DNA of 58,725 bases from Gemmatimonadota bacterium (GTDB taxonomy: Bacteria > Gemmatimonadota > Gemmatimonadetes > JACCXV01 > JAHWKZ01). Below, one piece after another: positions 1 through 55,785 of this stretch; the first letter of the stretch is position 1, and the number at the start of each line of letters is the position of its first letter. A program made the position numbers and the translations under genes. The stretch covers positions 1 through 58,725 of the forward strand of contig JBFGIA010000001.1 in the NCBI GenBank assembly GCA_041577935.1. Direction: 5' to 3'. The notes under the pieces were generated by a model. The model was not told where the DNA came from and did not search any database. It was given only the letters and a program-made list of their open reading frames with translations.

Positions 1-1285
1 GCGCGACCAGCGGCAAGAACCCGGTCCAGAACTTGGCCCACAACATCTCCCCGGTCGTGAGCGGGCTGGTCTGAAGCAGCCACAGCGTCTGCCCCTCGAG
101 ACTCACTCCAGGAAGAACGAATCGGGCCGCCAATGCTGTGACGACGAAGCCGACCAGGCCGATGTTCAAGAACGCCAGCAGGTCTCGCAACAAGTAGCCG
201 GTCCCACCGGCGGCATCCAGGGGCAGCACCCTGAAGTTGTACAGATAGATTGCGATCACAGCGAGCAGGAGAAAAAGCTGTGACCATTGTCCGGGGTCAC
301 GAAAAAACGTCGAGACATCCTTCACGATCATCGCTTGCACGCGTCGTGGAAACGGACGTACCAACAACTGCAACGTACGACGCCACCACAACCGGCGCGT
401 CCACTGGACTTGTCGCGCTTCCTGCGATTTCGAGTAACCGGTTCGGAACATCTCGCGAAACACGCCCGCAGCGGCGAGCGTCGATACCATTGCTCCGATC
501 ACCAGCAACGAGCCATACAACGTAACTGCATCCCAATGCACAGCGTTGTATACGCCCAGCACTTCCCCCAGGACACGCGCTGCCCAATACGAAGGCAACC
601 ACGGAAGCGTGGGGTTCGAAAGCGAGACCAGGTACTCGGCCCACGTCCCGAAGTCCTCGGGCCGCACGAACTCCTCGGGTCGGAACGCGCGCAGAAGAAT
701 AACGATGGCGGCTATGAACATGAGCGCAACCAGCGACAGCAAATCTCGCGCGCGACGAGCGGGAAACAGATTCACCAATGCGACGGCAACCAAGACGCCT
801 ATCGATGTCGCGATCGCGACACAGCATCCGACGGCCACAACCAGCGCGGCGTAGTAGGTCCAACCAGCGCCAAAGACCACCCCGTAGGCCACCCATACCG
901 GAATGGCCAGAAAGACGGCTGTCCAGGACGCCAGCGTGGCGACCTCGACGAGCTTCACACGGAACAATCTGCGCAAGGGAATCGGCGCCGCGAGCCACAT
1001 CGGGAGATCGCGCGCCAAAAAGATTTGAGTCACCGCCGTAATCAGCGCCGAGAAAGCGAGAAACGACAACCAGAGCAGAAACAAGAGTGCCAGGAGCTTG
1101 GCAGCCAAAACCCGACCCAAGTCTGGATCGACGCTCGCGAAGTGATCCAGCACCCGAACCATCACCAGATAGAAAGCGGCCCAAAAAACGAGCCCTAGCA
1201 CGATCGGTACACTGATCCGGTGAATCCCGCCGGGTCGCTGCTCGCGCTTCAATCCCGCGAGTCGGGGATAGAACAGGGTCGTCAC
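1..1285 (-). CDS. ABC exporter permease (polytopic membrane subunit); 3' end runs off the window
   Basis: Not in the ORF track because there is no stop inside the window. The reverse frame reads (GTG)TTLFYPRLAGLKREQRPGGIHRISVPIVLGLVFWAAFYLVMV...GEMLWAKFWTGFLPLVA, with repeated hydrophobic helices. The GTG at 1285 overlaps the TGA stop of the upstream ATPase gene (GTGA). Confidence 0.7.
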   Translation of the reverse strand, partial: MTTLFYPRLAGLKREQRPGGIHRISVPIVLGLVFWAAFYLVMVRVLDHFASVDPDLGRVLAAKLLALLFLLWLSFLAFSALITAVTQIFLARDLPMWLAAPIPLRRLFRVKLVEVATLASWTAVFLAIPVWVAYGVVFGAGWTYYAALVVAVGCCVAIATSIGVLVAVALVNLFPARRARDLLSLVALMFIAAIVILLRAFRPEEFVRPEDFGTWAEYLVSLSNPTLPWLPSYWAARVLGEVLGVYNAVHWDAVTLYGSLLVIGAMVSTLAAAGVFREMFRTGYSKSQEARQVQWTRRLWWRRTLQLLVRPFPRRVQAMIVKDVSTFFRDPGQWSQLFLLLAVIAIYLYNFRVLPLDAAGGTGYLLRDLLAFLNIGLVGFVVTALAARFVLPGVSLEGQTLWLLQTSPLTTGEMLWAKFWTGFLPLVA

Positions 1286-2040
1286 ACCAGGGAGGGCTCG
1301 CCGACCGGCCCACCGCCTTCGGTCAGCCCCAGGAAGATTTCCTCGAGCGAGCTGTCTTCCCGACGCGCTTCACGACGCAGTTCGTCGATCGTTCCGCGGG
1401 TGATGATCTCTCCGCGATGGATGATCGCGACCCGCGTGCACAGCGCCTCGGCTATCTCGAGCGTGTGGGTCGAGAGAAACACCGTGTGACCCTTTGCGGT
1501 GAGGTTGGAAAACAGCGTTTTCATCCGGCTCTGGCTACGTGGATCGAGGCCCACGGTGGGCTCATCGATGATGATGATCTCGGGCTCGTGCAGCAGCGCC
1601 GACGTCATGGCCAGCTTCTGTCGCATTCCATGGCTATAGGCTTCGACGAGCTCGTCGATCCACTCACCCAGTTCGAACCGCTCGATCAAGTCGCGTGAGC
1701 GTTCGCGGACCGTCGCCGGACTCAAGTCGTACAGATGCCCCACAAACTCCAGGAACTCCGATCCGGTTAGCTTGTCGTACAGGAAGGGCCGGTCGGGGAC
1801 AAAGCCGACTCGACGTTTGACCTCGTAGGGGTCCTCTACGACGTCGTACCCCGCGACCTCGACCCGACCACTGGACGGCAAGAGGAGACCCGTCATGATC
1901 TTGATGGTCGTCGTCTTGCCCGCACCGTTGGGTCCCAGGAAGCCGAAGAGCTCACCCGGCTCGACGTCGAGCGAGATCCCCCGTAGCACCGGAAACGCGC
2001 CATAAGATTTGGTCAGATCGGTAACGACGATGCCGCTCAA
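1282..2040 (-). CDS. ABC transporter ATP-binding protein (ABC-2 type)
   Basis: Walker A GPNGAGKTTT, Walker B IIIIDEPTVGLD, H-loop LSTHTLE. The longest ORF reaches 2112 but overlaps the upstream gene. TTG at 2040 gives the typical N-terminus MSGIVVTDLTKSYG. Confidence 0.9.
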   Translation of the reverse strand: MSGIVVTDLTKSYGAFPVLRGISLDVEPGELFGFLGPNGAGKTTTIKIMTGLLLPSSGRVEVAGYDVVEDPYEVKRRVGFVPDRPFLYDKLTGSEFLEFVGHLYDLSPATVRERSRDLIERFELGEWIDELVEAYSHGMRQKLAMTSALLHEPEIIIIDEPTVGLDPRSQSRMKTLFSNLTAKGHTVFLSTHTLEIAEALCTRVAIIHRGEIITRGTIDELRREARREDSSLEEIFLGLTEGGGPVGEPSLV

Positions 2041-2063
2041 TGGCTCTGAGTCCTGCCGAGGGG

Positions 2064-2666
2064 TTACCGCGACTCGCGGCAATCGATCAGATCGTTCTCC
2101 GTCACGATCCAATCGACTCGCTGGTCGCGTTCGGTATGTGGAACCCTCTCAACAACTTGCAAGGAGAATGCCAACCCCACCCTCGGGGCCGAGACCGAGG
2201 CCAGCCAGCGGTCGTAGAACCCGCCTCCGAGGCCGAGCCTGTGCCCCGAGCGGTCAAACGCGACGCCCGGCACGATGATCAGGTCGAACTCGTCCTCGGA
2301 AACGCGATCGGCTCGACTGGGATCGGGCTCCCAGAGCCCGGCCGGGGTGAGCTTCAGCTCATCCAGCGAGCTGATCTCGAGCCCGACCATTCCCGGCGGC
2401 TTGAACGTCACGATTGCAGGGGCCGCGACCCGCTTGCCATCGGCTAGCGCGAGGATCGCTAGCTCGTGGGTCGGCACCTCGCCCGGAAGGGCCCCGATGT
2501 AGAGATGGAGTGTGCCCGCCTGGCGGAACTGCTCGAGCGCGACCAGCCGATCGGTGATCGCCTGCCCCCGTGCTGCCAGGAGGCGCGGATCGAGTTCCGA
2601 GCGAGCCTGCAGCATGCGTTTTCTGAGCGCACTCTTGGCCGCCGCCACGACATCGCGATCGGCCAT
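2064..2666 (-). CDS. 5-formyltetrahydrofolate cyclo-ligase
   Basis: About 200 aa. N-terminal LRKRMLQARSEL and C-terminal GVAFDRSGHRLGLGGGFYDRWL are typical of the MTHFS family. Confidence 0.85.
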   Translation of the reverse strand: MADRDVVAAAKSALRKRMLQARSELDPRLLAARGQAITDRLVALEQFRQAGTLHLYIGALPGEVPTHELAILALADGKRVAAPAIVTFKPPGMVGLEISSLDELKLTPAGLWEPDPSRADRVSEDEFDLIIVPGVAFDRSGHRLGLGGGFYDRWLASVSAPRVGLAFSLQVVERVPHTERDQRVDWIVTENDLIDCRESR

Positions 2667-2679
2667 GGGTTGGTCTGGG

Positions 2680-4092
2680 CTACGTCCGTTTGACGTGAAT
2701 GGTCAATCCGTCGACGGCGGTGACTTCGACCTCGGTCCCGGGCTCGAGCGGCTCATCGGCCCGGGCCTTCCACAGCTCGCCGTGCACGAGAACCTGACCC
2801 GTGGGATCGATTCCCCGGCGCACCACACCGCACTCGCCCACCAACCCCTCGCGGCCGGTTGTCGGTTGCGTCCGCCAAGTACGGTAAGCCAACCCGAGAG
2901 CGATCACAAAGAACGCAGCCGTCACGACTACAGCCGGCACGATCACGCTCCAGCTGACCCGGAAGAAGGAACCCGGTGCATCGAACAACATTGTAGCCCC
3001 CAACACAAACGATATAACCCCACCGACGGTCAGCAATCCGAAGCTCACGATCTTCACCTCGGCGATGAATAAGACCAGCGAAAACAGGAGCAGCAGCACA
3101 CCGACGTAGTTCACCGGTAGCGCCTGAAGGGCGAAAAACGCCAGCAGCAGCGAGATCACCCCCACCACGCCAGGCAATATCGATCCCGGGTTCATGAGCT
3201 CGAAGAAAATGCCGTAAATGCCGATCAACATCAGGATGAACGCGATGTTGGGATTGGCGATCGCGTCCAGGATCCGAAACCGCATGCCCTTCGGGATGTC
3301 CCGGATCTCGGCCTGGGCGGTGGCCAGCGTGACGGTACGATCCAGCACCTCGATCTCGCGGCCGTCGATCTCATCCAGCAGCTTGGCGAGGTTAGGTACC
3401 ACCAGATCGATGACATTTAGCTCAAGCGCTTCGGTCTCGGTGATCGCGTCGGCCTCGCGCACTGCGCGCTCGGCCCACTCGGCGTTGCGACCCCGTTTCT
3501 CGGCGATCGTCCGAATGAACGCCACCGTGTCGTTCAAGATCTTGCGCTCGAGATCGCTCTGGCCCTCGGTCTGCTCCTCGGCCACGGAGTCTGCCGGCGC
3601 CGGTCCACCCGGTGAGAAATCCCCGCCGCCGATGTTGATCGGCGTCGCCGCACCGATGTTCGTACCCGGCGCCATCGCAGCCACGTGCGCAGCAAGCGTG
3701 ATGAAAACCCCGGCCGACCCGGCGCGCGCCCCACCAGGTGAGACATATACGACCACCGGAACGCGGCTGCCCAGCATGGCTTGAATGATGTCGCGTGTCG
3801 AATCGACCAGGCCGCCGGGCGTGTCGAGCTCGATGATCAACGCGTCGGCGCGCTCGTCGCCCGCCTTGGCGATGGCGTTGACGAGAAACTCCGCCGACGC
3901 GGGCTGAATGGCGCCATCGATCTCGACCCGGTACACGAACACGCGGTCGGGTTCTGCGGCTGTCGTATCTGGCTCTGCAGCCGTCGTATCCGACCCTGTG
4001 GCGGTCGTACCCTGGGCTGCCGCCGGGCGCGCGGCCAACAACAGCGTGAACGCGGCAAGCACCACACCGAGCAGTCTGGAGGCTGACCTCAT
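2680..4092 (-). CDS. NfeD-family membrane-bound serine protease (ClpP-like domain + TM block + C-terminal OB domain)
   Basis: Signal peptide ending AAAQG, ClpP-class core YVSPGGARAGSAGVFITLAAHVAAMAPGTNIGAATPI, a multi-TM region, and a C-terminal NfeD beta-barrel (GQVLVHGELWKARA). Confidence 0.85.
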   Translation of the reverse strand: MRSASRLLGVVLAAFTLLLAARPAAAQGTTATGSDTTAAEPDTTAAEPDRVFVYRVEIDGAIQPASAEFLVNAIAKAGDERADALIIELDTPGGLVDSTRDIIQAMLGSRVPVVVYVSPGGARAGSAGVFITLAAHVAAMAPGTNIGAATPINIGGGDFSPGGPAPADSVAEEQTEGQSDLERKILNDTVAFIRTIAEKRGRNAEWAERAVREADAITETEALELNVIDLVVPNLAKLLDEIDGREIEVLDRTVTLATAQAEIRDIPKGMRFRILDAIANPNIAFILMLIGIYGIFFELMNPGSILPGVVGVISLLLAFFALQALPVNYVGVLLLLFSLVLFIAEVKIVSFGLLTVGGVISFVLGATMLFDAPGSFFRVSWSVIVPAVVVTAAFFVIALGLAYRTWRTQPTTGREGLVGECGVVRRGIDPTGQVLVHGELWKARADEPLEPGTEVEVTAVDGLTIHVKRT

Positions 4093-14789: not shown

Positions 14790-16196
14790 TTATTCGGTCG
14801 GGGCGAAGCCGCTCGGAGCGGGCACCGGCTGTGAAGCCGGGCGCTCGGGGGTTTCCCCGTTGCCCCAGTTGTAGCGGGTCCCAAAGCGGGTCAGCAGGAA
14901 CAACCCGAAACCGATCGTCAAGGCGGCGAACTGAATCACGATCCCGATCACCATCAGGATCACGCCAAAGACCCCAAACGGTCCCCCGATCAACCCGAGG
15001 GCGCTGCCAAAGAGCAGCAACACGCTGAGAAAACCAACACCGACCAGAATCGAAAGGTACGGGTTGGTGTGCTCCCACCCGAACCGACGCTCGGCTTCAT
15101 GCCCGACGTACTTGGCGACGGCAACGAAACCCAGCAGGATCCCGATCTTCAACGCCAGCAGCGCAAATGGGATGACGAGCAGCAATGGGATACCGATAAT
15201 CGAGATGGCGAGAATGACCACCGTCAGGACCAACACCGGGATGAGCAGCAGCCACGCGACCAACCCGATGGCGGTGGCCTTCCACGCCGAAGTCGCCATC
15301 CGGTACTCCATCCGTTCGATCGGGCCGCGCCCAAGCAGGAACAACAGGGCGACGATGAACGCCAGAAAGGCGATCCACAGCACGGTCCCGATCAACCCAC
15401 CGATATTCCCGATTATCGGGCTGAAGCCCCACTGGGGGTGGATATCGATATTCGGTCCAAAGGCGACCTCATTGACGGCGCCATGAACGACCGCCCCAGG
15501 CGCCCGATGGATCGTGCCACCGACCGAGGTTACCTCGCCTTCGACCACCGCGTTTGGGCCCAACCGGACCGAGCCGCCGACCGCGACGACCGAGCCATCC
15601 ACATGACCATCCACGCGGGCCGAGCCGCCGACCGCCACCACATCCCCTTCGACGTGCCTGCCAGCTGGAACGTTGACGCTTCCGCCGACGCGGACCTGGT
15701 CGCCTTCCTCGCTGATGAACGTGGCGCCCTCATGGTCCTCGTCATCCTGCGCCTCATCTGCTTCACCGGTCGCTCCGGCTGCGGTCTCGTCGATGGCCGC
15801 CGCATCGGTCGTCGGTGGCGGGCCGATCCCGAACAGGACGCGACGCGTGGTCGTGTCCATAAACGAGAGTCGCGTGATATCCTGGGCGTCGTCGCCGATG
15901 CGCTCGGTCAACTCGGCGCCAGTCACCGGTTCTCCATCGATGCCGATGGAGCCATTTGCCAACTCGATCGACTGCACATCCGTGCGGTATCTGGGCATCA
16001 GCACGACGCCGTTCTGAATGGGCAACACCTGGTACCGGCGCTCGACCCGGTCCCGTAGCTCACCCAACGTGGGTGCAACTTCCTGCGCCGCGGATCCCGC
16101 GGTCGCCTGCGCCAGACTGACCGGAGCGAAGCTCAACATGAGCAACGTTCCAAGCGTCAGGGCGCGCCAGAGATTCGTCGACGCGATCATCACCAT
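14790..16196 (-). CDS. membrane protein: periplasmic beta-helical (bactofilin-like repeat) domain + polytopic C-terminal domain
   Basis: Signal peptide, repeats VRVGGSVNVPAGRHVEGDVVAVGGSARVDGHVDGSVVAVGGSVRLGPNAVVEGEVTSVGGTIH, then about 6 TM helices. Third gene of the ECF sigma operon. Confidence 0.6.
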   Translation of the reverse strand: MVMIASTNLWRALTLGTLLMLSFAPVSLAQATAGSAAQEVAPTLGELRDRVERRYQVLPIQNGVVLMPRYRTDVQSIELANGSIGIDGEPVTGAELTERIGDDAQDITRLSFMDTTTRRVLFGIGPPPTTDAAAIDETAAGATGEADEAQDDEDHEGATFISEEGDQVRVGGSVNVPAGRHVEGDVVAVGGSARVDGHVDGSVVAVGGSVRLGPNAVVEGEVTSVGGTIHRAPGAVVHGAVNEVAFGPNIDIHPQWGFSPIIGNIGGLIGTVLWIAFLAFIVALLFLLGRGPIERMEYRMATSAWKATAIGLVAWLLLIPVLVLTVVILAISIIGIPLLLVIPFALLALKIGILLGFVAVAKYVGHEAERRFGWEHTNPYLSILVGVGFLSVLLLFGSALGLIGGPFGVFGVILMVIGIVIQFAALTIGFGLFLLTRFGTRYNWGNGETPERPASQPVPAPSGFAPTE

Positions 16197-19499: not shown

Positions 19500-19535
19500 G
19501 GTCTCGATTGAACACTCACGTTGGAGGACAACACG

Positions 19536-20096
19536 ATGACGAGGATCGACGGCTCTGATCGCGGCGGCTCACCGTTGGCGCGGTACGCGTTTTGGGTCTC
19601 ACGTCGCCGGCACGGCAAGGTCACCGGGCCGCTCAAGCTCTACGCGCGCCATCCAAAGGTGCTGTACGGCGTTGGGCAGATGGAAATGGCGCTCCGTCGC
19701 GCGCGTCGGGTTCCCGTCAATCTGCGGGAGTTGGCGGTACTCAGGGTCGCGACGCGCGTCGGGTGTCCCTTCTGAATCGATATCAACGCTGCCGGGAGCA
19801 GCGACGTCGGGATTACCCATGAGCAACTCGAAGCGCTCCACAACTACGAGCGATCCGACGCTTTTTCCGCTCAAGAGAAAGCGCTACTGCGGTACGCCGA
19901 CGCGATGACAAACACACCGGCGGATGTCAACGACGACGTATTCACAGCTGTGGCCAGAGAGTTCACCGACGAGCAGGTCATCGAGCTGACCGCCTTCTTG
20001 GCGTGGGAGAACTTTCGAGCCCGGTTCAATCATGCGCTTGGGGTTGAATCGGATGGCTTCGCGGAGGGCGCGGCTTGCCCGCTCCCGACTGCCTAA
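19536..20096 (+). CDS. AhpD/carboxymuconolactone-decarboxylase-like protein with in-frame TGA (predicted selenocysteine) in a C-P-F-U redox motif
   Basis: ORFs 19521..19775 and 19905..20096 are in the same frame (offset 384 nt) with no other stop between them. Joined reading: ...LRVATRVGCPF-TGA(19773..19775)-IDINAAGSSDVGITHEQLEALHNYERSDAFSAQEKALLRYADAMTNTP... The TGA replaces the second Cys of the family CxxC. GGAGGA lies 7 nt before the ATG at 19536. Confidence 0.7.
19776..19814 (+). promoter_or_regulatory. candidate bacterial SECIS hairpin
   Basis: CGCUGC(19787..19792)-CGGGA-GCAGCG(19798..19803) is a perfect 6-bp stem that starts 12 nt after the UGA. The G-rich apical loop lies about +21..+25 from the U of UGA. 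Possible lower stems are AAUC/GAUU or CGA/UCG. Confidence 0.5.
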
Positions 20097-20929
20097 CGCT
20101 GACAGACGGGGCAGTAATACGTCGAGCGCTGAGCCTGGACGATCCGTTTTATCGGCCCGCCACATCGACGACAGGGTTCGTCCTCGCGATGGTAGACGTT
20201 TAGCGCTTCGTAGAACCCACCCGGGTCGCCATCGGCGTCGGCGAAATTCAAGTACGTCCCGCCGAGCGATGTCCCCGACCCACCAACCGCCTCGGACAGT
20301 ACTTCGACGATCGCACGGTGGAGGCGTGCGGCGCGCACCGAGCCCACGTTCTTCGCCCGTCGACGCGGGCTCACCCGAGCCCGCCACAACGCCTCGGCGA
20401 CGTATATGTTGCCGAGCCCCGCGATCCGTCGCTGGTCGAGCAGGAACGTCTTGAGTGGTTGGCGGCTGGCGGCCAGACGATCCTCGAGCACGGCTACCGT
20501 GAACGCCGGGCTCAGTGGCTCGGGACCGAGTTTGGCCGCCCGCGCGGCCCAATCGACGGCGGGTACGATCTCCAACCGGCCGAGCGTCCGCGGATCGACA
20601 TACAGGAGCCGCGAGCCATCTTCAAAGTCGAACGTCGCCCGAGTGTAGACCGGAACCGAATCGCTGTCGGCGCCATTTTTCACCACCCGGTAGCTGCCAC
20701 TCATCCTCAGGTGTGTCAGCCACACTCGATCGCTCTCGAGCTCGATCACAATGAACTTGGCGCGGCGGGTAACGGATCGAATCGCAGCTCCCTCGAGCGC
20801 TCGGGTGAGCTTGGCCGTTGAACCGTGGACGATGTTGTCTCTCAAAATCTGAACCCGTTCGACGCGCCTTCCCGGAAGGACTTTCACCAGTTGGCGCACG
20901 ATCGTCTCGACCTCGGGCAGCTCCGGCAC
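20093..20929 (-). CDS. mutM: formamidopyrimidine-DNA glycosylase
   Basis: N-terminal MPELPEVETI and C-terminal zinc finger CRRCGGPIKRIVQAQRSTYYCPVCQ. Confidence 0.95.
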   Translation of the reverse strand: MPELPEVETIVRQLVKVLPGRRVERVQILRDNIVHGSTAKLTRALEGAAIRSVTRRAKFIVIELESDRVWLTHLRMSGSYRVVKNGADSDSVPVYTRATFDFEDGSRLLYVDPRTLGRLEIVPAVDWAARAAKLGPEPLSPAFTVAVLEDRLAASRQPLKTFLLDQRRIAGLGNIYVAEALWRARVSPRRRAKNVGSVRAARLHRAIVEVLSEAVGGSGTSLGGTYLNFADADGDPGGFYEALNVYHREDEPCRRCGGPIKRIVQAQRSTYYCPVCQR

Positions 20930-32803: not shown

Positions 32804-33271
32804 ATGCCCACGCTCAAGGTCGGCGACCCAGCACCGGATCTCGATCTCCCCTCGACCGAAGACCAAAACATTCGGCTCGCCGATCTCGTGGGGAACGTGG
32901 TCGTGCTCTACTTCTATCCCCGCGACATGACACCTGGATGAACAGCGGAGGCGTGCGCCTTCAAGGGCAGGTTGCCCGATTTCACCAACTTGGATGCGAT
33001 CGTGCTCGGCGTTTCGAAAGATTCAGTCGCCAGTCACCGTCGCTTTCAAAAGAGATTCAGCCTGCCGTTCCCGCTGCTCTCCGACGCCGAGAGCGATGTG
33101 TGTGAGCGCTACCATGTGTGGAAGAAAAAGAAGCTTTTCGGGCGCGAGAGCATGGGGATCGAGCGCACCACGTTCGTGATCGACGAGACTGGCCGGATCG
33201 CGCACGTCTTTCCCAAGGTGAAAGTGAAAGGTCACGCCAAGGAAGTGCTGGCGGTGATCGCGGAGATGTAA
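32804..33271 (+). CDS. bcp: Bcp/PrxQ peroxiredoxin with in-frame TGA (predicted selenocysteine) at the peroxidatic Cys position
   Basis: ATG at 32804, then 45 codons MPTLKVGDPAPDLDLPSTEDQNIRLADLVGNVVVLYFYPRDMTPG, then TGA (32939..32941), then TAEACAFKG... in frame with ORF 32972..33271. Collinear with E. coli Bcp: YFYPKAMTPGCTVQAC vs YFYPRDMTPG-U-TAEAC. Total 155 aa. Confidence 0.8.
32947..32977 (+). promoter_or_regulatory. candidate SECIS region (two alternative hairpins)
   Basis: GGAGGC-GUGC-GCCUUC (32947..32962, 6 bp including one GU pair, GU-containing tetraloop). GGGCA-GGU-UGCCC (32965..32977, loop about +32 from the UGA). I cannot tell by eye which one is functional. Confidence 0.4.
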
Positions 33272-37356: not shown

Positions 37357-38313
37357 GTGGGCCGGGGGCGAAAAACGATCGGCGGGATCCTCGCCGCGGC
37401 AGCGGCAGCCATCACCGCCCGGGCCGCTGTCGCCCGATCGCCAGAACCACCACCACCGCCACCGGGTCGGCCCGATCGGTACGGCTGGCGGCACGCCGAC
37501 ATTTTTCACACCACGCGCGGCAATGGTGCCCCAGCGCTGCTGCTCCACGACCTCTACACCGGTGCGTCTGGACTGGAGATGGCGCCACTCGGCGACCGAC
37601 TCGAGGAGCATTTCACTGTCTACACCGTCGACCTGCCGGGATTTGGCCGCTCGGGTCGACCGTCGATGCGCTACGGTCCGGATTTCTTCTTTGATGCGAT
37701 CGTCGAGTTCGTACGCCACGTCGTCGATCGGCCCACGCTCGTGGTCGGCTGTGGCCTGTCCGCTGCCTACGCAATCGAGGCGGCGGTGCGGCTCGGAAAT
37801 CTCGTCTCGGGCGTCGTTATGCTGGCGCCACCCGAAGCGGAGGGCCCCGAGCTGCTTGAGGCGCCGACCTGGCGTCCCTTGGTGTACCAAGGTCTTCGTT
37901 CGCCGTTCGGGGCCGCATATCACTGGTGGCATGCCAGCCCGGCATGGCGGAAGGCGTCACTCCGCGGGGCGTTGAGGGTCGAGCCATCCGATCTGGAGGC
38001 CCGGGCGGAGCAGCTCTCGCGATCAGCCCGGCAGCCCGGGGGCCGCTGGGCGCTCTGGTCGCTGTGGAGCGGCGACCTCGCGTGGGATGCGCGACCGGCG
38101 CTCGCTCGGCTCGGCGCCCCCACGCTCGTTCTCTGGGGCTCCGAAGCGCGCGCCAACCCGCTCGCGCCCGAGCACTATCACGCCGTGCGCCCCGATATCA
38201 CCCAGCAGGTCGTCCCGGGCACCGCTCGGTGGCCGCACGTCGACACACCGGATACGGTGGCCGCTGAGATCCAGCGTTGGTGGGCAGCCGAAGGCCCCGG
38301 GAGCATACCCTGA
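37357..38313 (+). CDS. alpha/beta-fold hydrolase
   Basis: LLLHDLY...YTVDLPGFGRSGRP, nucleophile-elbow-like GCGLSAAYA, and WPHVD near the C-terminus. The N-terminal Ala/Pro-rich segment may be a signal or anchor. Confidence 0.8.
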   Translation: MGRGRKTIGGILAAAAAAITARAAVARSPEPPPPPPGRPDRYGWRHADIFHTTRGNGAPALLLHDLYTGASGLEMAPLGDRLEEHFTVYTVDLPGFGRSGRPSMRYGPDFFFDAIVEFVRHVVDRPTLVVGCGLSAAYAIEAAVRLGNLVSGVVMLAPPEAEGPELLEAPTWRPLVYQGLRSPFGAAYHWWHASPAWRKASLRGALRVEPSDLEARAEQLSRSARQPGGRWALWSLWSGDLAWDARPALARLGAPTLVLWGSEARANPLAPEHYHAVRPDITQQVVPGTARWPHVDTPDTVAAEIQRWWAAEGPGSIP

Positions 38314-39512
38314 GCGACGGCCGGGGACCGAGGCTGTGGATCAGCATCGCCTGGCTGGACGGCGCGATCGCCCTCACCATCCCATCGCTCATCTTCCGGC
38401 TAACCGACGTGCACGCCACTGCACCCATCGAGGCGCTCGTCTTTGGGGCTGGGATCCTCGGCGCGGCGTTCCTGCTCTCCTGGGCCGCCGAAGTCGTACA
38501 AATGGAAATCAGCCAGGCCCTCGCACTCGCCATTCTCGCGCTGATCGCCATCCTCCCGGAGTACGCGGTCGACCTCTACTTCGCCTGGCGGGCGGCCGAA
38601 GATCCCGTGTACGGCCACTACGCCGCCGCCAACATGACCGGCGCCAACCGGCTCCTCGTCGGCCTCGGCTGGCCGCTCGTCGTGTGGCTCTTCTGGACCC
38701 GCTGGCGGAAGCGCGAAATCGAGCTGGCTCCAAGCGACCAGATCGCGGTCTGGTTTCTCGCCATGGCCACCCTGTACGCCTTCGTGATCGCAGCCGTGGG
38801 CTCGTTCTGGTGGCTCGACACCGTGGTGTTGATCGGTCTCTTCGCGTGGTACCTGTACCGAACCGGCGCACTCGGCGCGGGGGAGCCGGACCTGGTCGGA
38901 CCCGCCCTGATGCTAAGCCGGCTGCCGCGTGTCTGGAGATTGGGCTGCAACGCGGGTCTGTTCGCGTTCGCCGGCCTGATCATCTTCCTGGCCGCGGAGC
39001 CGTTCGCCGAGGCGTTGATCGATACCGGGCACCAATTCGGGATCGACGAGTTTCTGCTCGTCCAGTGGGTGGCGCCGCTGGCGTCCGAGGCGCCCGAGTT
39101 CATCATCGCCGCCATCTGGACCGTCCGTGGCCACGCGACAATGGCGCTCTCGGCGTTGATCTCGTCCAAGGTCAATCAGTGGACGCTGCTGATCGGCACG
39201 ATCTCGATCGTGTATTCGATCTCGGCCGGTCGCATCCAGGCGCTGCAGCTCGACCTCCAGCAGCAGCACGAGATCTTCCTGACCGCGGCCCAATCGTTGT
39301 TCGCCGCCGTGATGCTCTCCGACCGCCGCCTCAGCTGGTGGCAGGCGCTGCTGTTGTTCCTCCCGTTCGCGACGCAGTTGATCATCCCCGCGCTACGGAT
39401 GGAAATCGCGGTCGTCTACCTGCTATTCACTGTGATCTGGGGGTTCCATTACCGCCATCACCTGGCGGCGATCCTGCGGAGCGGTCCAAGGGGGTTGGGT
39501 AACAGGACCTAG
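38277..39512 (+). CDS. CaCA-superfamily (Na+/Ca2+ exchanger-like) cation antiporter
   Basis: About 10 TM helices with two alpha-repeat-like motifs, AILPEYAVDL and ASEAPEFIIAAIW. The start is uncertain (TTG 38277 overlaps the preceding gene). Confidence 0.55.
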   Translation: MVGSRRPREHTLSDGRGPRLWISIAWLDGAIALTIPSLIFRLTDVHATAPIEALVFGAGILGAAFLLSWAAEVVQMEISQALALAILALIAILPEYAVDLYFAWRAAEDPVYGHYAAANMTGANRLLVGLGWPLVVWLFWTRWRKREIELAPSDQIAVWFLAMATLYAFVIAAVGSFWWLDTVVLIGLFAWYLYRTGALGAGEPDLVGPALMLSRLPRVWRLGCNAGLFAFAGLIIFLAAEPFAEALIDTGHQFGIDEFLLVQWVAPLASEAPEFIIAAIWTVRGHATMALSALISSKVNQWTLLIGTISIVYSISAGRIQALQLDLQQQHEIFLTAAQSLFAAVMLSDRRLSWWQALLLFLPFATQLIIPALRMEIAVVYLLFTVIWGFHYRHHLAAILRSGPRGLGNRT

Positions 39513-43081: not shown

Positions 43082-44422
43082 TTGCCGAACCCATGCTCTC
43101 CGCGACGACCACCAACTGAAGCTATCAACGGCCGGGCTGCCCCTTTCGCTGCGCTCGTAACGGGTGCACTCACGCTCGTTGTTGTCAGCGTCGCGATGCG
43201 TGCCGGAACTGAACCGTTTGCGACATGGTATTACCCGTTAGCGTGGTTCCCCACGCTGCTCATGCTGGATGCGGTCGCCGCTCTCAGGGGTGGCGGCCGC
43301 CTCTTTTTTGTGGCCCGGCCAAACGCCATCCCCTCGATGTTGGCGTGGTCGGTGCCCTTTTGGCTCTTCTTCGAGCTGCTCAACTTTCGACTCGAGAACT
43401 GGTACTACGTCTTCGTACCCGACGACCCGGTGGCGCGGTGGGCGGGCATCGGGCTTTCGTTCGCCACCGTTCTGCCAGCGATTTTCCTAGCGGAGCGGGC
43501 ACTCGGCGGATTCAAGAATTCGAGCGACGCACCACCCCGTCGGGCCCTCAAACCCACTCCGCTATACGCGATCCAGTTGATCGGCGCGGCGGCGCTGTTG
43601 GTGCCGCTCGTCTGGCCCACCTTCCTTTTTCCGCTCGTTTGGGTCGGCGGTCTGCTGCTGGTTGACCCCTGGGTGTACCGGCGTGATCCGAAGCGGTCGC
43701 TGCTGGCCGATCTGGAGCGCCGCCAGCCGGGCCGTGTGCTGCGCCTGCTTGTCGGCGGAATGATGATCGGGCTCTTGTGGGAGCTCTACAACGTCAGCGC
43801 GCGCGGCAAATGGATCTATACCGTCCCCGGCCTCGAGGAGCTCAAGCTCTTCGAGATGCCACTGCTGGGGTTTTTGGGCTTCCCGGTGTTCGCGCTTGAG
43901 GGATTCGCCGTATATCAGGCGCTGGTGGTGAGCGGGCTGGCGGCGCCCGATCGCGGTCATGCCAAACCACCGTCGCATATCATGGTTGCACTGGCGGCTA
44001 TCCTCGCGATCGTGTTCTCGGCGCTCGTCCTGCTCGGTATGGAGCGGCACACGATCTCGTCGATGACACCACGGTTGGCCGATTTCCAGGGTGTCTCGTC
44101 GTCCGCGCTCGAACACGCCGGGTACGACATTTTCAACCTAGCCGAGGCGGATGCAGCATCGGTGGAGGCTAAAACCGGTCTTTCCGCCCAAACTGCTCGC
44201 GTCTGGGTCGATCGCGCTCAGTTGATCGTTCTGCGAGGGATCGGAAGTGAGAACGCGAAGCGACTGGAAGCCACCGGAATTTTCACGATCACCGAGTTGG
44301 CAGCCATTGATCCCGACCGGTTGGTCGAACGATTGCGCCGAGAACCCGGTCGTCCGGTGTATGCGGCGCGGGTTCGCGTTTGGGTCCGGGCCGCCCGCGA
44401 TGCAATCGGTGCGACACCGTAG
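43082..44422 (+). CDS. polytopic membrane protein with C-terminal helix-hairpin-helix (DUF4332-like) domain
   Basis: About 8 hydrophobic helices, then LRGIGSENAKRLEATGIFTITELAAIDPDRLVERL. The start is uncertain: a TATAAT at 43074..43079 would place the TSS inside the longest ORF, and the next in-frame ATG is at 43196. Confidence 0.6.
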   Translation: MPNPCSPRRPPTEAINGRAAPFAALVTGALTLVVVSVAMRAGTEPFATWYYPLAWFPTLLMLDAVAALRGGGRLFFVARPNAIPSMLAWSVPFWLFFELLNFRLENWYYVFVPDDPVARWAGIGLSFATVLPAIFLAERALGGFKNSSDAPPRRALKPTPLYAIQLIGAAALLVPLVWPTFLFPLVWVGGLLLVDPWVYRRDPKRSLLADLERRQPGRVLRLLVGGMMIGLLWELYNVSARGKWIYTVPGLEELKLFEMPLLGFLGFPVFALEGFAVYQALVVSGLAAPDRGHAKPPSHIMVALAAILAIVFSALVLLGMERHTISSMTPRLADFQGVSSSALEHAGYDIFNLAEADAASVEAKTGLSAQTARVWVDRAQLIVLRGIGSENAKRLEATGIFTITELAAIDPDRLVERLRREPGRPVYAARVRVWVRAARDAIGATP

Positions 44423-44481
44423 CAGAACCCGCCTCGCTGGCTGAAACCCTCGCAGCGGGATTACCGTACTGCCTACCGATC

Positions 44482-45411
44482 ATGCGTTTTCTACAGGCGA
44501 TACTCCTTGTCGTGCTCTCCACAGGAGCAGCGCAGGCACAAATACTCGACGGCTCGTTGTCGGGGCTGGCGTTTGGAGATGGCGTCGAGATCGCGCGTGC
44601 GACGCTCGGACCTGACTGCCGGTCGATCAGCGCATTCGATCTCAGCGCGCCGCGTCTCCCGCTCGCCGCCGAGCGCGAATCGGAGCTCATCTGCTGGAGC
44701 TACGCGAGTCCGGGTGGCTTGAACCTCGACACGCTCGTGCTGCGCTTCGCCGATGGCGGGTTGGTGATGGTCGAGGCTCGGGGTGAAAACGTAACTGCGC
44801 TCCTAAGCCCCGAAGAAGAAACAATGGAGTACGCCGGTTACGTCGGGTACATAGGACCGGACGAGGCGGTCGTGATCGACGGCGACGTGGCGTGGGTCGT
44901 ACGTACCAACGACATGCACTCGCATCCGTTTCTCGGATCTACGCCGGTAGTCACGGAGGAGGGTTTACCGGCAGCATCAGCAACCGCCCACAAGCCGCCC
45001 GACCTCGTCTTCGGCGCCTCACTCGATGAGATCCGCGAGACCTTCGTGCCGCAATGCGCGCGTGCGGTCGAGCGAGAGATTTCGCCACCCGGCCTACCGA
45101 ACCAACCTGAAAAACAAACCCAGATCGACTGCCTCGGCTTCCCTTACGCCGGGTTTCCACGCAAGGTCGAGGCGGTGTTTGCAGACGGGGAGCTCGCGCT
45201 CGTCTGGATCTTGACCGGTAAGCAGGAGGAACCGCGTGTCCGGGACGCCCTGATCGCGGCGTACGGCGAGCCAGTACGCGTCGATGAAGACTCCGAGGTG
45301 TTTGGCGATGGGAGCGTCGTCCTGCGCAAGGACAAGCCAGAGGTTCTGTTCCTCTCGGCGGAGTTAGCGCCGGCTTTCACCGAACCACAAGCCGAGCAGG
45401 AAACCCCTTAA
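44482..45411 (+). CDS. secreted hypothetical protein with internal two-domain duplication
   Basis: Signal peptide MRFLQAILLVVLSTGAAQAQ. FADGGLVMVEARGE and FADGELALVWILTG mark the repeated halves. Confidence 0.5.
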   Translation: MRFLQAILLVVLSTGAAQAQILDGSLSGLAFGDGVEIARATLGPDCRSISAFDLSAPRLPLAAERESELICWSYASPGGLNLDTLVLRFADGGLVMVEARGENVTALLSPEEETMEYAGYVGYIGPDEAVVIDGDVAWVVRTNDMHSHPFLGSTPVVTEEGLPAASATAHKPPDLVFGASLDEIRETFVPQCARAVEREISPPGLPNQPEKQTQIDCLGFPYAGFPRKVEAVFADGELALVWILTGKQEEPRVRDALIAAYGEPVRVDEDSEVFGDGSVVLRKDKPEVLFLSAELAPAFTEPQAEQETP

Positions 45412-49952: not shown

Positions 49953-51158
49953 TCATTCTGCGATCACGATCTCAGATGTCAGCGTGCGATGAACCGGGCA
50001 CCGACCGGCGATCTCCCGCAACCGCTGACGCTGGCCATCCGACAGCGAGCCCTGAAACTCGATGTCGACCGCGATCCTGTCGATCAGACCCTCTTTGGTC
50101 TCGCAATCGGCGCAATCCTCGGCATGCATCCGGTCGTGCGCGAGGCGGGCGATCGTTTTCGTCAGCGGCCAACCTTTTCGATCCGCGTACAGACGCGCAG
50201 TAATAGTCATGCAAGCGCCAAGCGCCGACAGCAGGAGCTCGTACGGGTTGGGACCCGTGTTGGTGCCACCCACGTCGAGCGGCTCATCGGCCGCGAGTCG
50301 ATGCGATGCGGTCTCGATCTCGACCGCGTACCCCGAACGACCGCCGCGCACTTCAACCGTTCCCAGGGGAACACGACCGGTGTGTTGATCCGAGGCCTCG
50401 GCGATCAGGTAACGCGCTGACCATACGGCGAGCAACCCGGCCACGAACCGAGCGTCACGAGGCTCACGCAGCAAGTGATCGGCGCCGTCCAGCGACACGA
50501 AACTCTTGGGATGCCGGGCCGCGTCGTAGATTCTTCGGGCGTGCTCGATCGCAACCGTCTCATCGGTCGGTGAATGAAGCACCAGCAAAGGCACCCCGAG
50601 CCCATCCAGCCGTTGCTCCACGTCCTGTGCCTCGAGATCCTCTAGGAATCGCCGCTTGATGGTGAACTTCCGGCCTTCGAGCTCGATTTCGGCCTCGTCT
50701 GCGGACGCCAACTCGGGCGCGCCTTGAATCAAGGATGCCCGCAGGTGTCTGGTATCGCTCGGTGCGCCGATCGTCGCGACCGCTTTGGCTTCCGGAATTT
50801 TGGCCGCAGCCAGAAGCACCGCAGCGCCGCCAAGGCTATGACCGATCAGGAGCCCTGGCGCTCGGTACTCGCGCCGCAAGTAGTTGGCGGCAGCCACCAG
50901 GTCGTCGACGTTGGATGAAAAGTCAGAGTTGGCGAACTCTCCCTCGCTCTCGCCCAAACCGGTAAAGTCGAATCGCAACACCGCCAACCCTTCGTCGCAC
51001 AACGCGCGGCTGATCTCTCGCACCGCGCGAAGATCCTTGGAGCAGGTAAAGCAATGGGCGAACAACGCGTAGGCGATCGGTTCGCCGGTCGGACGTTCGA
51101 GCCGCGCGGCGAGCTGCGCCGATAGTGCGCCTGGAAACGTCAGCTTCTCGGTCGGCAT
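49953..51158 (-). CDS. bifunctional alpha/beta hydrolase / OsmC-family fusion protein
   Basis: N-terminal hydrolase with GHSLGGAAVL. C-terminal OsmC/Ohr domain GGTNTGPNPYELLLSALGACMTIT ... GRCPVHRTL. Confidence 0.85.
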   Translation of the reverse strand: MPTEKLTFPGALSAQLAARLERPTGEPIAYALFAHCFTCSKDLRAVREISRALCDEGLAVLRFDFTGLGESEGEFANSDFSSNVDDLVAAANYLRREYRAPGLLIGHSLGGAAVLLAAAKIPEAKAVATIGAPSDTRHLRASLIQGAPELASADEAEIELEGRKFTIKRRFLEDLEAQDVEQRLDGLGVPLLVLHSPTDETVAIEHARRIYDAARHPKSFVSLDGADHLLREPRDARFVAGLLAVWSARYLIAEASDQHTGRVPLGTVEVRGGRSGYAVEIETASHRLAADEPLDVGGTNTGPNPYELLLSALGACMTITARLYADRKGWPLTKTIARLAHDRMHAEDCADCETKEGLIDRIAVDIEFQGSLSDGQRQRLREIAGRCPVHRTLTSEIVIAE

Positions 51159-53232: not shown

Positions 53233-54081
53233 CTATTTGTCGAGGTCGAACGCGTCAAACGTGAAGGTCACGCCAAACGTCAGGCCGAACTCAGGGTCGT
53301 CGTCCCCTAGCCCGATGATCGTGGCACCGTCAAAGCGGATCGGGTCGGCGCGATAGCGAGCCCCAACTCGAAGTTCCGCTCGATCTTCCGTACCGGGCGG
53401 CGGCGGGCCCTTGAGGTCAATGCGGCCACCGACCTCGGCTACGAGATCGATTGTGGGAGTGGCGCGTTGTGTAATCGAAAGGGCAGCCGTCAACACATCG
53501 TTCTGACGTGCCGCCTCGGTGGGCATCGCGAGCACCGCTGCACCCACGTTCCCGACGATTCGGGTACGGCCAAGGGTCTTCCCGGCAAGCAAGGTGACAA
53601 ACCAATCAAAGGTGTCGTTCCCGAGCCCGCTTTCGTTGCTGGCCGATGGCAGTCGCGTAGCGACACGAAAACCGATCGCTGGGCTACGCCGCGTTTCGTG
53701 TTGCAACAGGATTTTGGTCGCGATCACCGGATCTTTGATATCGGTCGTCGTGTCGCCGGTGAAGTCGACTTTCTCCGAAAGCGGTGCCTCTGTCGCCGAG
53801 TCGACGAACAACAGGGTGAGCCCCGAGTCAACCTGGAATTCGGCGATCGAGCTGAGCCCAACGCTGAAACCTAAATACGGGATCTGCAGGAAATCCCCCT
53901 CTAAGCCAGAAAGCGGGAACTTGGCCCGATGCTCATAACCGACACCCGTCTCGACCAGGATCTGACCGGGACGAATCGGCTGCGGATCCTCGGTCAGAAG
54001 TGGTCGATGCTGAGCTTTCGCGGTTCGATCACCGACCAGCAAAAGCATCATCACCAAGAGCGTGAAGTGGCGTGAGCGCAC
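53233..54081 (-). CDS. outer-membrane beta-barrel protein (MetA-pathway/transporter-like family)
   Basis: Signal peptide ...[12 protein letters not shown], alternating amphipathic beta strands, and a C-terminal aromatic residue. The start (GTG 54081) is uncertain. Confidence 0.5.
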
Positions 54082-54144
54082 GAACCGCAAACTAGAAACC
54101 CTCGTCGACACCGCAACGACGGGGTCGATAACGTTGAGACTACG

Positions 54145-55785
54145 GTGAACGAGAAAACAGCCTCCCTGACGCGACTCCCTGAGTGGCGTGCGCTCGAAAC
54201 CCACCTGACCCGGATCGGGCAGCTCCACCTGCGAACGCTGTTTGCCGAGGATCCGACCCGCGGCGACGAACTGGCCTGCGAAGCCGCAGGACTGTACCTC
54301 GACTACTCCAAGAACCGCGTCACAAGGGAAACTCTGCGGCTGCTGCTTGAGCTCGCCGATTCGGCTGCACTAACGGAACGAATCAGCGCGATGTTCCGTG
54401 GCGAGCGGATCAATACGACCGAGGAGCGGGCCGTCCTTCACGTCGCTCTTCGCGCGCCTCGCGACGCATCCATCGTCGTCGACGGCGAGAACGTGGTCCC
54501 CAAGGTCCACGCCGTGATCGACCAGATGGCTGCGTTCGCCAACCAGGTCCGGGACCGAGGCTGGCACGGTCACACCGGGAAACCGATCCGGAACATCGTC
54601 AACATTGGGATCGGTGGCTCGAGCCTGGGTCCGGTCATGGCCTACGAAGCATTGCGATACTACAGCGACCGCGACCTCAAGCATCGATTCGTGTCCAATG
54701 TCGACGCCACCGACTTCGCCGAGGCCGTGCGCGACCTCGACCCGGCCGAGACGCTGTTCATCGTTGCATCCAAGAGCTTCACTACGCTCGAGACGCTCAC
54801 CAACGCCAAGATGGCGCGAGCATGGGTCCTCGACGCGCTCGGCGATCAAAGTGCCGTGGCGCATCACTTCGTGGCGCTTTCGACCAACGCTCAAGAGGTA
54901 CGTCGATTCGGAATCGACACTGATAACATGTTCGGTTTCTGGGATTGGGTCGGTGGACGGTACTCGATCGACTCGGCGATCGGATTGTCGCTCATGATCG
55001 CCATTGGCCCCGAGCAGTTCGCCCAGTTCCTGGCTGGCTTTCGGGCCATGGACGACCATTTCCGGAGCGCTCCGCTCGACCGCAACCTGCCTGTTCTCCT
55101 CGCGCTGCTGGGCATCTGGTACAACGACTTCTTCGGTTCCGAGTCGTACGCCGTGCTGCCCTACGATACGTATCTGGCCCGGCTGCCGGCTTACCTGCAG
55201 CAACTCGACATGGAAAGCAACGGCAAACGAGTCGACCGCGACGGCGCGCGGGTCGACTATCAAACCGGGCCGATCGTCTGGGGCGAGCCCGGAACCGATG
55301 GACAACACGCGTTCTACCAGCTGATCCACCAGGGCACAAAGCTCGTGCCCTGTGATCTGATCGGCTTTCTCGAGCCGCTGAACCCAAGCGGTCGACACCA
55401 CGACCTCTTGATCGCCAACCTGTTGGCCCAGGCTGAAGCGCTGGCGTTCGGTAAGACAGCTGACGAGGTCGCCGCCGAGGGCGTCCCAGAATCCCTGGTT
55501 CCGCACCGCACTTTCCCCGGTAACCGACCCACCAACGTGATCTTCGGCGCGCGGCTCTCCCCGCTCACGTTGGGCGCGTTGATCGCGCTCTACGAGCACA
55601 AAGTCTTTGTGCAGGGCTCGATTTGGCGCATCAACTCGTTCGACCAGTGGGGTGTGGAGCTCGGGAAAATATTGGCCGAGAATATCGCCGCCGAGATCGA
55701 GGATCCGAGCGAACCGACACTCGGCCATGACAGCTCGACCAATGCGTTGATTCGCCGCTACCGGGCGATGAGAAAGCCGAGCTAG
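54145..55785 (+). CDS. pgi: glucose-6-phosphate isomerase
   Basis: [29 protein letters not shown], and ESNGKRVD motifs. 546 aa. Confidence 0.95.

Follow-up and report, generated by a model that had tools for sequence, protein, structure and literature searches.

A predicted AhpD-like selenoprotein gene with a conserved downstream hairpin in a Gemmatimonadota genome

Since 2005, the literature has described proteins of the AhpD-like group in which selenocysteine (Sec) takes the second position of the CxxC redox motif (CxxU); both the COG2128/YciW type and a type with a carboxymuconolactone decarboxylase (CMD) domain (pfam02627, "AhpD-like 2") are established selenoproteins (PMC1088965, PMC2398784, PMC9312934, PMC13188914). 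The window discussed here, meaning the whole stretch of 58,725 nucleotides (nt) analysed from contig JBFGIA010000001.1 of a Gemmatimonadota bacterium (assembly GCA_041577935.1), contains a member of this known family, a gene at 19536..20096 with one in-frame TGA. A sequence-only reading of the window had predicted this gene to encode a selenoprotein and had attributed the AhpD-like selenoprotein family to marine metagenome surveys, an attribution borne out by three of these papers, in which the CxxU motif is listed (PMC1088965, PMC2398784, PMC9312934).

Like the AhpD-like selenoproteins of the Sargasso Sea and Global Ocean Sampling (GOS) surveys, the predicted protein combines a CMD/AhpD fold with Sec as the second redox residue of CxxC and has widespread Cys homologues, and its gene carries a candidate selenocysteine insertion sequence (SECIS) directly downstream, with a G in a small apical loop. 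Whereas the documented members come mostly from marine metagenomes, the clade of the window gene is found in metagenome-assembled genomes (MAGs) of Gemmatimonadota, Acidobacteriota, Myxococcota and Planctomycetota. Judged by the structure of the gene, the column into which its TGA falls, the fold of the product and the conservation of the hairpin, the UGA at 19773-19775 very probably directs genuine insertion of Sec, yielding an AhpD-like selenoprotein of 186 amino acids.

The gene and its internal TGA

Two open reading frames (ORFs), 19521..19775 and 19905..20096, had been described as lying 384 nt (128 codons) apart in one frame, and the ORF list confirms this. Translation of 19521-20096 likewise finds the TGA at 19773-19775 to be the sole internal stop, the terminal stop being TAA. 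A protein search with the read-through product found 57 relatives, and 30 sequences make up alignment A1; a scan of one genome per species gave at least 586 confirmed relatives, of which the best 80 were examined. The TGA-bearing set comprises 79 sequences including the window gene, 77 of them distinct and aligned, and the family set comprises 85 genes (84 loci and the window gene). Read through from the ATG at 19536, the product has the proposed length and the proposed CMD/AhpD-like character: the Pfam CMD domain PF02627 covers residues 41-122, across the TGA (38.3 bits, cut-off 23), and the N-terminus (MTRI...) lines up with the starts of the full-length homologues in alignment A1. The local context is ...RVGC77-P-F-[UGA]80-I-D-I-N84..., and the features of the gene are as follows.

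19536..20096, + strand: coding sequence of the predicted AhpD-like (CMD-fold) selenoprotein, 186 amino acids including Sec80, in one frame with a single internal TGA and a TAA stop at 20094-20096
19523..19527, + strand: Shine-Dalgarno-like GGAGG read from the sequence, 8 nt before the ATG at 19536, presumably functional
19764..19766, + strand: TGT codon of Cys77, first residue of C-P-F-U, Cys in 77 of 77 distinct TGA-bearing sequences and in all full-length homologues of alignment A1
19773..19775, + strand: in-frame UGA aligned with the second CxxC Cys of the homologues, predicted to encode Sec80

The TGA had been placed at the second redox Cys of CxxC, and alignment A1 gives an exact column match: 13 full-length Cys homologues (186-208 amino acids, 35-44% identical) have the motif GC[PES][FW]C with their second Cys in the TGA column. 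Among the best 80 of the species genomes, the codon at this site is TGA in 74 and TGC in six. The TGA carriers belong to Gemmatimonadota, Acidobacteriota, Planctomycetota, Myxococcota, Binatia and "Deltaproteobacteria" MAGs, and the TGC carriers to Rubrobacterales and other Actinomycetota, with one Dehalococcoidia. The nearest loci among the matches listed are Gemmatimonadota MAGs with 82-92% amino acid identity, three of which keep both the TGA and the hairpin; by these loci, the window belongs to that phylum. All 79 TGA-bearing sequences have 103-130 open codons after the TGA (106 in the window gene), and in 66 of the 79 the codon right after the TGA is not a start codon; the first start codon past the TGA of the window gene is 44 codons downstream. 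The most conserved motif of the family, AWENFRARFN, falls in the C-terminal half, after the TGA (alignment A1).

One base change separates TGC from TGA and Cys forms of the family exist, which would suit either an error of sequencing or assembly or a pseudogene created by a recent nonsense change of TGC/TGT. All 561 of its 561 nt, including the TGA and the hairpin, are however identical in five independent assemblies from different sequencing runs, and the TGA stands at the same codon in most of the species genomes examined, as given above. These identical assemblies, together with the breadth of the TGA and the conservation of the frame in relatives, exclude both an assembly error and a recent nonsense mutation, and the covariation and frozen synonymous sites of the hairpin described below would be unexpected in a pseudogene. 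This explanation has next to no probability.

As had been anticipated, standard gene callers split the gene. Some 40 database entries (100-115 amino acids, 43-58% identical) cover just the C-terminal part and begin one or two residues past the TGA column (MDLNS..., VDINS...), and the DNA of two such entries contains an 80-amino-acid gene ending in ...GCPF-TGA, with a "next gene" called from the following codon. The window gene itself is called as two ORFs of 79 and 63 amino acids. The gene family is thus present in public databases mostly as 100-115-amino-acid fragments or pairs of short ORFs, and the nearest curated models miss it. Given the number of confirmed relatives, hundreds of genomes regain a full-length redox enzyme once the TGA is read as Sec. 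The finding is useful for annotation and leaves the current understanding of selenoproteins unchanged.

The hairpin downstream of the UGA

A perfect 6-bp hairpin, CGCUGC-CGGGA-GCAGCG, had been noted behind the UGA, and it is found as described at 19787-19803, where its first base is the 12th nucleotide past the UGA, so that the spacer is 11 nt long.

19776..19786, + strand: 11-nt spacer between the UGA and the predicted SECIS stem, fixed in length in 77 of 77 aligned sequences, with no insertions or deletions
19787..19803, + strand: predicted SECIS hairpin, with 5' arm CGCUGC (19787-19792), apical loop CGGGA (19793-19797) and 3' arm GCAGCG (19798-19803)

Published constraints on the bacterial SECIS (bSECIS) call for an apical loop of 3-9 nt, an upper stem of 4-16 bp, a G in the first two loop positions, a distance from UGA to loop of 16-37 nt and a minimum free energy no higher than -7.5 kcal/mol (PMC13188914). 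The hairpin has a loop of 5 nt, a stem of 6 bp, a G at loop position 2, a UGA-to-loop distance of 17 nt and a free energy of -8.7 kcal/mol, in agreement with every one of these constraints, and 64 of the 77 orthologues satisfy the full set.

A gap-free alignment of the 77 distinct sequences (alignment A2) spans 57 nt around the TGA, and RNAalifold finds the 6-bp stem unaided in it. In a 7-pair version of the stem, standard pairs occupy 92% of cells, compared with 37-55% when the 3' arm is slid by one to three columns; the covariation score is 0.196 versus 0.058 for shuffled alignments, and none of 500 shuffles reaches the observed value. Compensatory changes are seen at pair 24-40 (CG in 37 sequences, GC in 11, UA in 11), pair 25-39 (UA in 60, UG in nine, GC in seven) and pair 27-37 (UA in 73, GC in three). 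In the sub-clade of the window gene, the peptide encoded over the hairpin is AAGSS instead of SAVGR, yet pair 25-39 has switched from U-A to G-C.

Synonymous sites within the stem are frozen: Ser is encoded by TCT in 68 of 69 cases, Arg by AGA/AGG in 67 of 70, and the in-stem Gly by GGC in 59 of 59, whereas a Gly four codons downstream, which serves as an internal control, is GGC in 29 sequences, GGG in 23, GGA in 15 and GGT in nine. The six Cys forms have TCG/TCA and CGG/CGC at the stem Ser and Arg positions, with 64% of cells paired (a figure from only six sequences), and five of them are missing the contiguous stem. Judged from this covariation, the constrained synonymous sites and the loss of the stem in Cys forms, the hairpin is selected as an RNA element. 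Its 17 nt are near-identical across several phyla and provide a compact, well-supported bacterial SECIS example for search models.

A Dehalococcoidia Cys form (L013; TGC; 3217..3264) retains six of the seven pairs (CUCGGC...GCCGGG), unlike the five actinobacterial Cys forms, and may represent a recent switch from Sec to Cys.

Proposed selenocysteine decoding, the active site and a second TGA-bearing gene

The AlphaFold2 model of the product is all-helical, with a predicted local distance difference test score (pLDDT) of 93.3 and a predicted template modelling score (pTM) of 0.88. It places the C-P-F-U segment between helices 61-75 and 82-91, and its tail, residues 171-186, is coil with pLDDT dropping from 82 to 65. 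In a profile search of the Protein Data Bank (PDB), the nearest solved relatives by sequence are Atu0492 and PA0269 (E ~1e-22). Glu65, Cys77, Phe79, Sec80 and Asn84 align with Glu36, Cys48, Tyr50, Cys51 and His55 of PA0269, residues that form a proton relay of which the His is reported to be invariant (PMC3141380). The codons of interest outside the C-P-F-U motif are the following.

19728..19730, + strand: codon of Glu65, aligned with Glu36 (the proton-relay Glu) of PA0269 by profile alignment to 2ijc/2o4d
19785..19787, + strand: codon of Asn84, matched by profile alignment to the relay His (His55 of PA0269, His137 of Mycobacterium tuberculosis AhpD)
20076..20078, + strand: TGC codon of Cys181, invariant in 30 of 30 sequences of alignment A1, in the C-terminal tail that AlphaFold2 models as coil

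In the proposed mechanism, the mRNA hairpin at 19787-19803 would be bound by SelB carrying Sec-tRNA(Sec), and the UGA at 19773-19775 would then be decoded as Sec and not as a stop. The resulting redox centre, Cys77-Pro-Phe-Sec80, would lie at the start of a helix, with Sec where the exposed attacking Cys of AhpD sits, and the protein would be a selenol/thiol oxidoreductase. Sec80 would attack an oxidised partner, either a protein (the sulfenate or disulfide form of a peroxiredoxin, or some other disulfide) or a hydroperoxide itself. Cys77 would resolve the adduct as a selenenylsulfide, and a thiol system of the cell would return the centre to its reduced state. We infer that SelB binds the hairpin in this organism and that selenium is actually inserted, and the substrates named are likewise inferred.

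Cys181 may also join the re-reduction step. It lies in the motif EGAAC[PVA] and is itself invariant in all 30 sequences of alignment A1, Sec and Cys forms alike, within a tail that has no counterpart in the shorter proteins 2gmy and 2o4d. Cys181 may be a third redox residue and is a conceivable partner of Sec80.

A number of results count against the reading of this gene as an AhpD-like selenoprotein. The 63 nt after the UGA fold no more stably than shuffled sequence (z = -0.47), a measure that is uninformative for so small a hairpin. Of the UGA triplets in the window, 9.3% precede a bSECIS-type hairpin, and 252 TGAs of the window (63% G+C) are flanked on each side by 35 or more open codons, many of them near Cys, Ser or Thr codons. 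No Rfam family was found in the whole window at gathering thresholds, and a search of 19700-19900 at E <= 10 gave nothing beyond noise. Genes for selA, selB and selD were not among the 28 large ORFs tested, and there is no tRNA, tRNA-Sec included, in the 58.7-kb window. The relay His is replaced by Asn84 in the window gene, with Glu65 retained. No ahpC gene adjoins it, its neighbours being an arginase-family gene, a metallophosphoesterase gene and the convergent mutM and purD, and all-against-all BLAST of the flanking ORFs of 83 loci gave no recurrent partner gene. The product scores 42.8 against TIGR01926 (cut-off 81.8) and 127.5 bits against the NCBIfam model NF053654, "YciW-related (seleno)protein" (equivalog cut-off 310).

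We read the Rfam result as the lack of an applicable model and not as evidence against a SECIS. Taken alone, the hairpin is weak evidence; because the local pattern by itself is weak and does not exclude chance, the case rests on comparative evidence, namely homology and conservation across species, which take it far past chance. A scan for redox motifs around open-frame TGAs was dropped as a discriminator, having given dozens of motif matches in the window among the 252 sites. The large clusters of flanking ORFs in the 83 loci are shadow ORFs of the gene itself, and the minor clusters are SDR proteins (10 loci), radical SAM proteins (eight) and selB (five).

In five Acidobacteriota (L033, L011, L014, L018 and L044), selB lies upstream of the orthologue, no more than about 1 kb away. 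The selB of L033 is full-length (TIGR00475, 362 bits versus a cut-off of 242), and the order on the + strand of that locus (48..3567) is selB (48..1964), a 319-amino-acid membrane-protein ORF (1968..2927) and the AhpD-like gene (3001..3567); their common strand and tight spacing suggest an operon. A tRNA-Sec was not found beside the orthologues in 15 loci, and a literature search on Sec use in Gemmatimonadota returned nothing specific.

UGA reassignment occurs in some bacterial lineages, and the codon might accordingly stand for a standard amino acid without SelB, through a reassigned code or near-cognate read-through with Trp, Gly or Cys. This is extremely improbable. TGA is the ordinary stop of nine of the 23 confident genes of the window, so UGA is not globally reassigned; it also ends 38 of the 85 family genes. 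In the AhpD-like gene, UGA is found only at the redox Cys position, with the conserved SECIS-type hairpin at a fixed spacing behind it, and the selB genes adjacent to the five acidobacterial orthologues likewise speak for Sec.

It is also very unlikely that the gene is a relic, in which Sec decoding has been lost or has become inefficient so that a fragment of 79 residues is made and the downstream part is left untranslated and decaying. The two short ORFs returned by gene callers and the lack of Sec machinery in the window would fit such a relic, but the 106 stop-free codons after the TGA hold the most conserved residues of the family, and frame, TGA and hairpin are all unaltered in the relatives with 82-92% identity. 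Restarting translation at the first start codon would lose part of the conserved domain. A like pattern, moreover, is shown by a peroxiredoxin (Prx/Bcp) gene in the same genome and by its relatives, which again favours Sec decoding.

32804..33271, + strand: second candidate selenoprotein gene, Prx/Bcp, whose TGA (32939-32941) stands for the peroxidatic residue of TPG[U]T

Peroxiredoxins with TxxU are an established selenoprotein family (PMC1088965, PMC2398784, PMC9312934, PMC13188914). This gene, 13 kb from the AhpD-like gene, had been said to show the same pattern independently. It is indeed a gene of this kind, in which the TGA replaces the peroxidatic Cys (FYPRDMTPG[U]T), in the closest relatives as well, but no hairpin within the standard bSECIS constraints was found after its UGA. 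The read-through product matches the NCBIfam Bcp model NF006960 over its full length (147.2 bits versus an equivalog cut-off of 140). Syntenic relatives about 90% identical, from other samples (L169 and L172-L175), keep the TGA with an open frame behind it. These Sec forms came from the protein search, whereas the metagenome scan gave only Cys forms, with at most 57% identity; more distant relatives have Cys in 79 of 79 cases, and all relatives at 68% identity or below carry Cys. The gene has the appearance of a Sec form particular to this lineage, with a SECIS of non-canonical type. Together, the AhpD-like and Prx/Bcp genes indicate that this Gemmatimonadota lineage decodes Sec and puts selenium into oxidative-stress defence.

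Two small conserved hairpins are seen in the Prx/Bcp gene: GGAGGC-GUGC-GCCUUC, separated from the UGA by 5 nt, and GGGCA-GGU-UGCCC, whose loop is 28 nt past the UGA. Elsewhere in the window, a 401-amino-acid ORF (49953..51158, - strand) has a lactonase-like N-terminal region and a C-terminal region that weakly matches NF041052, "OsmC-related (seleno)protein" (38.8 bits versus a cut-off of 95); as no stop interrupts it, it presumably encodes a Cys form. At their stop codons (20093..20096), the AhpD-like gene and convergent mutM/fpg (20093..20929, - strand) share 4 nt, an overlap that leaves no space for a terminator between them. Five long ORFs of 331-471 amino acids lack NCBIfam matches: 14790..16196 (- strand) and 38087..39502 (+ strand) at E <= 1e-5, and 43082..44422 (+ strand), 44380..45411 (+ strand) and 53233..54228 (- strand) at E <= 1e-8.

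Relation to known systems

Among the nearest curated families is that of NF053654 (GroundWater_YciW), a model covering both Sec and Cys forms, to which the product is homologous end to end (residues 1-174 to model positions 1-175 of 179, E = 4.7e-37). Its score is far below the equivalog cut-off, which places the window gene in a sister clade of that family; by these scores, the clade appears homologous to, but captured by neither, TIGR01926 and NF053654.

PA0269 of Pseudomonas aeruginosa (2o4d/2ijc) and Atu0492 (2gmy) share the same Glu...CxxC helix-turn-helix core residue by residue. They differ in being Cys proteins of about 145 amino acids that possess the relay His (CxxCxxxH), whereas the window protein has Asn84, some 36 additional N-terminal residues and the tail with the invariant Cys. 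Among the 77 Sec forms, the relay-His column contains Gly in 49, Asn in 20, Ala in five and His in three. Over its full length, the model superposes on AhpD-core structures of about 185 amino acids, with Foldseek template modelling (TM) scores of 0.80-0.82 (6k40, 2prr, 3c1l, 2pfx and 6ohi). Deinococcus radiodurans AhpD DR_1765 (6k40) and the "peroxidase-related" proteins 2prr, 3c1l, 2pfx and 2oyo are matched in this range over 178-184 columns; all are Cys proteins, with 17-21% identity to the window protein.

With M. tuberculosis AhpD (1knc/1gu9), the window protein has in common a CxxC-type centre on a conserved two-helix motif. The second Cys of that enzyme, Cys133, is exposed and cross-links to AhpC (PMC6626918); because it is the attacking residue, Sec would replace the attacking residue in the window protein. 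The M. tuberculosis enzyme differs in chain topology (TM 0.41-0.55, E ~1), in its ahpC neighbour and in its Glu/His relay. Lacking both the relay His and an adjacent ahpC, the window gene does not encode a canonical AhpD, and with Asn in place of this His and no ahpC or other partner gene adjoining, AhpC recycling is not specifically supported.

Gamma-carboxymuconolactone decarboxylases (PcaC-type) have the CMD fold without a CxxC redox motif, and a decarboxylase active site (PMC3141380). Assignment to this type was rejected, as CxxU is present and Foldseek matches to 2q0t reach only TM 0.28-0.38 (E ~1-3).

Among other CMD-fold enzymes, the debrominase Bmp8 (6ohi/6ohj), with a catalytic Cys, is the top Foldseek match (TM 0.80; profile E = 1.7e-17). 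Its rank among the best structural matches, the missing relay His, the lack of an ahpC neighbour or of a conserved partner in 83 loci, and the invariant C-terminal Cys would all suit a genuine selenoprotein that is not an AhpD-type peroxiredoxin reductase and that performs, for example, Bmp8-like reductive dehalogenation or direct reduction of hydroperoxides or electrophiles. Such chemistry is possible but somewhat doubtful. The AhpD-type and "peroxidase-related" structures (6k40, 2prr, 3c1l and 2pfx) match equally well, the window protein retains the CxxC/CxxU centre and the relay Glu, and PA0269, the characterised relative closest in sequence, has weak peroxidase activity (PMC3141380). Bmp8 is 18% identical to the window protein, and neither halogenated substrates nor a bmp-type gene cluster is indicated here.

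A further proposal, which we consider unlikely, is that these genes form a distinct, Sec-dominant clade of the AhpD fold (TGA in 74 of 80), in which the relay His was lost and a C-terminal Cys gained, which curated models do not capture, and which has a function distinct from AhpD, either Bmp8- or deiodinase-style dehalogenation or a selenenylsulfide relay mediated by Cys181. The gene string selB-membrane protein-ahpD-like would be a trait of this clade in some Acidobacteriota. If the proposal were true, the clade could be a main reason why these lineages keep their Sec machinery.

A close known counterpart of the hairpin itself is the SECIS of Escherichia coli fdhF, in which a minimal upper stem-loop of 17 nt begins 11 nt after the UGA and has G23/U24 in its loop and a bulged U17. 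The predicted SECIS of the AhpD-like gene differs from it in having no bulged U, an unrelated stem and, in the window, a loop of CGGGA rather than GUN, and resembles it in its 11-nt spacer, its 17-nt hairpin and its G (mostly GU) at positions 22-23 counted from the U of the UGA.

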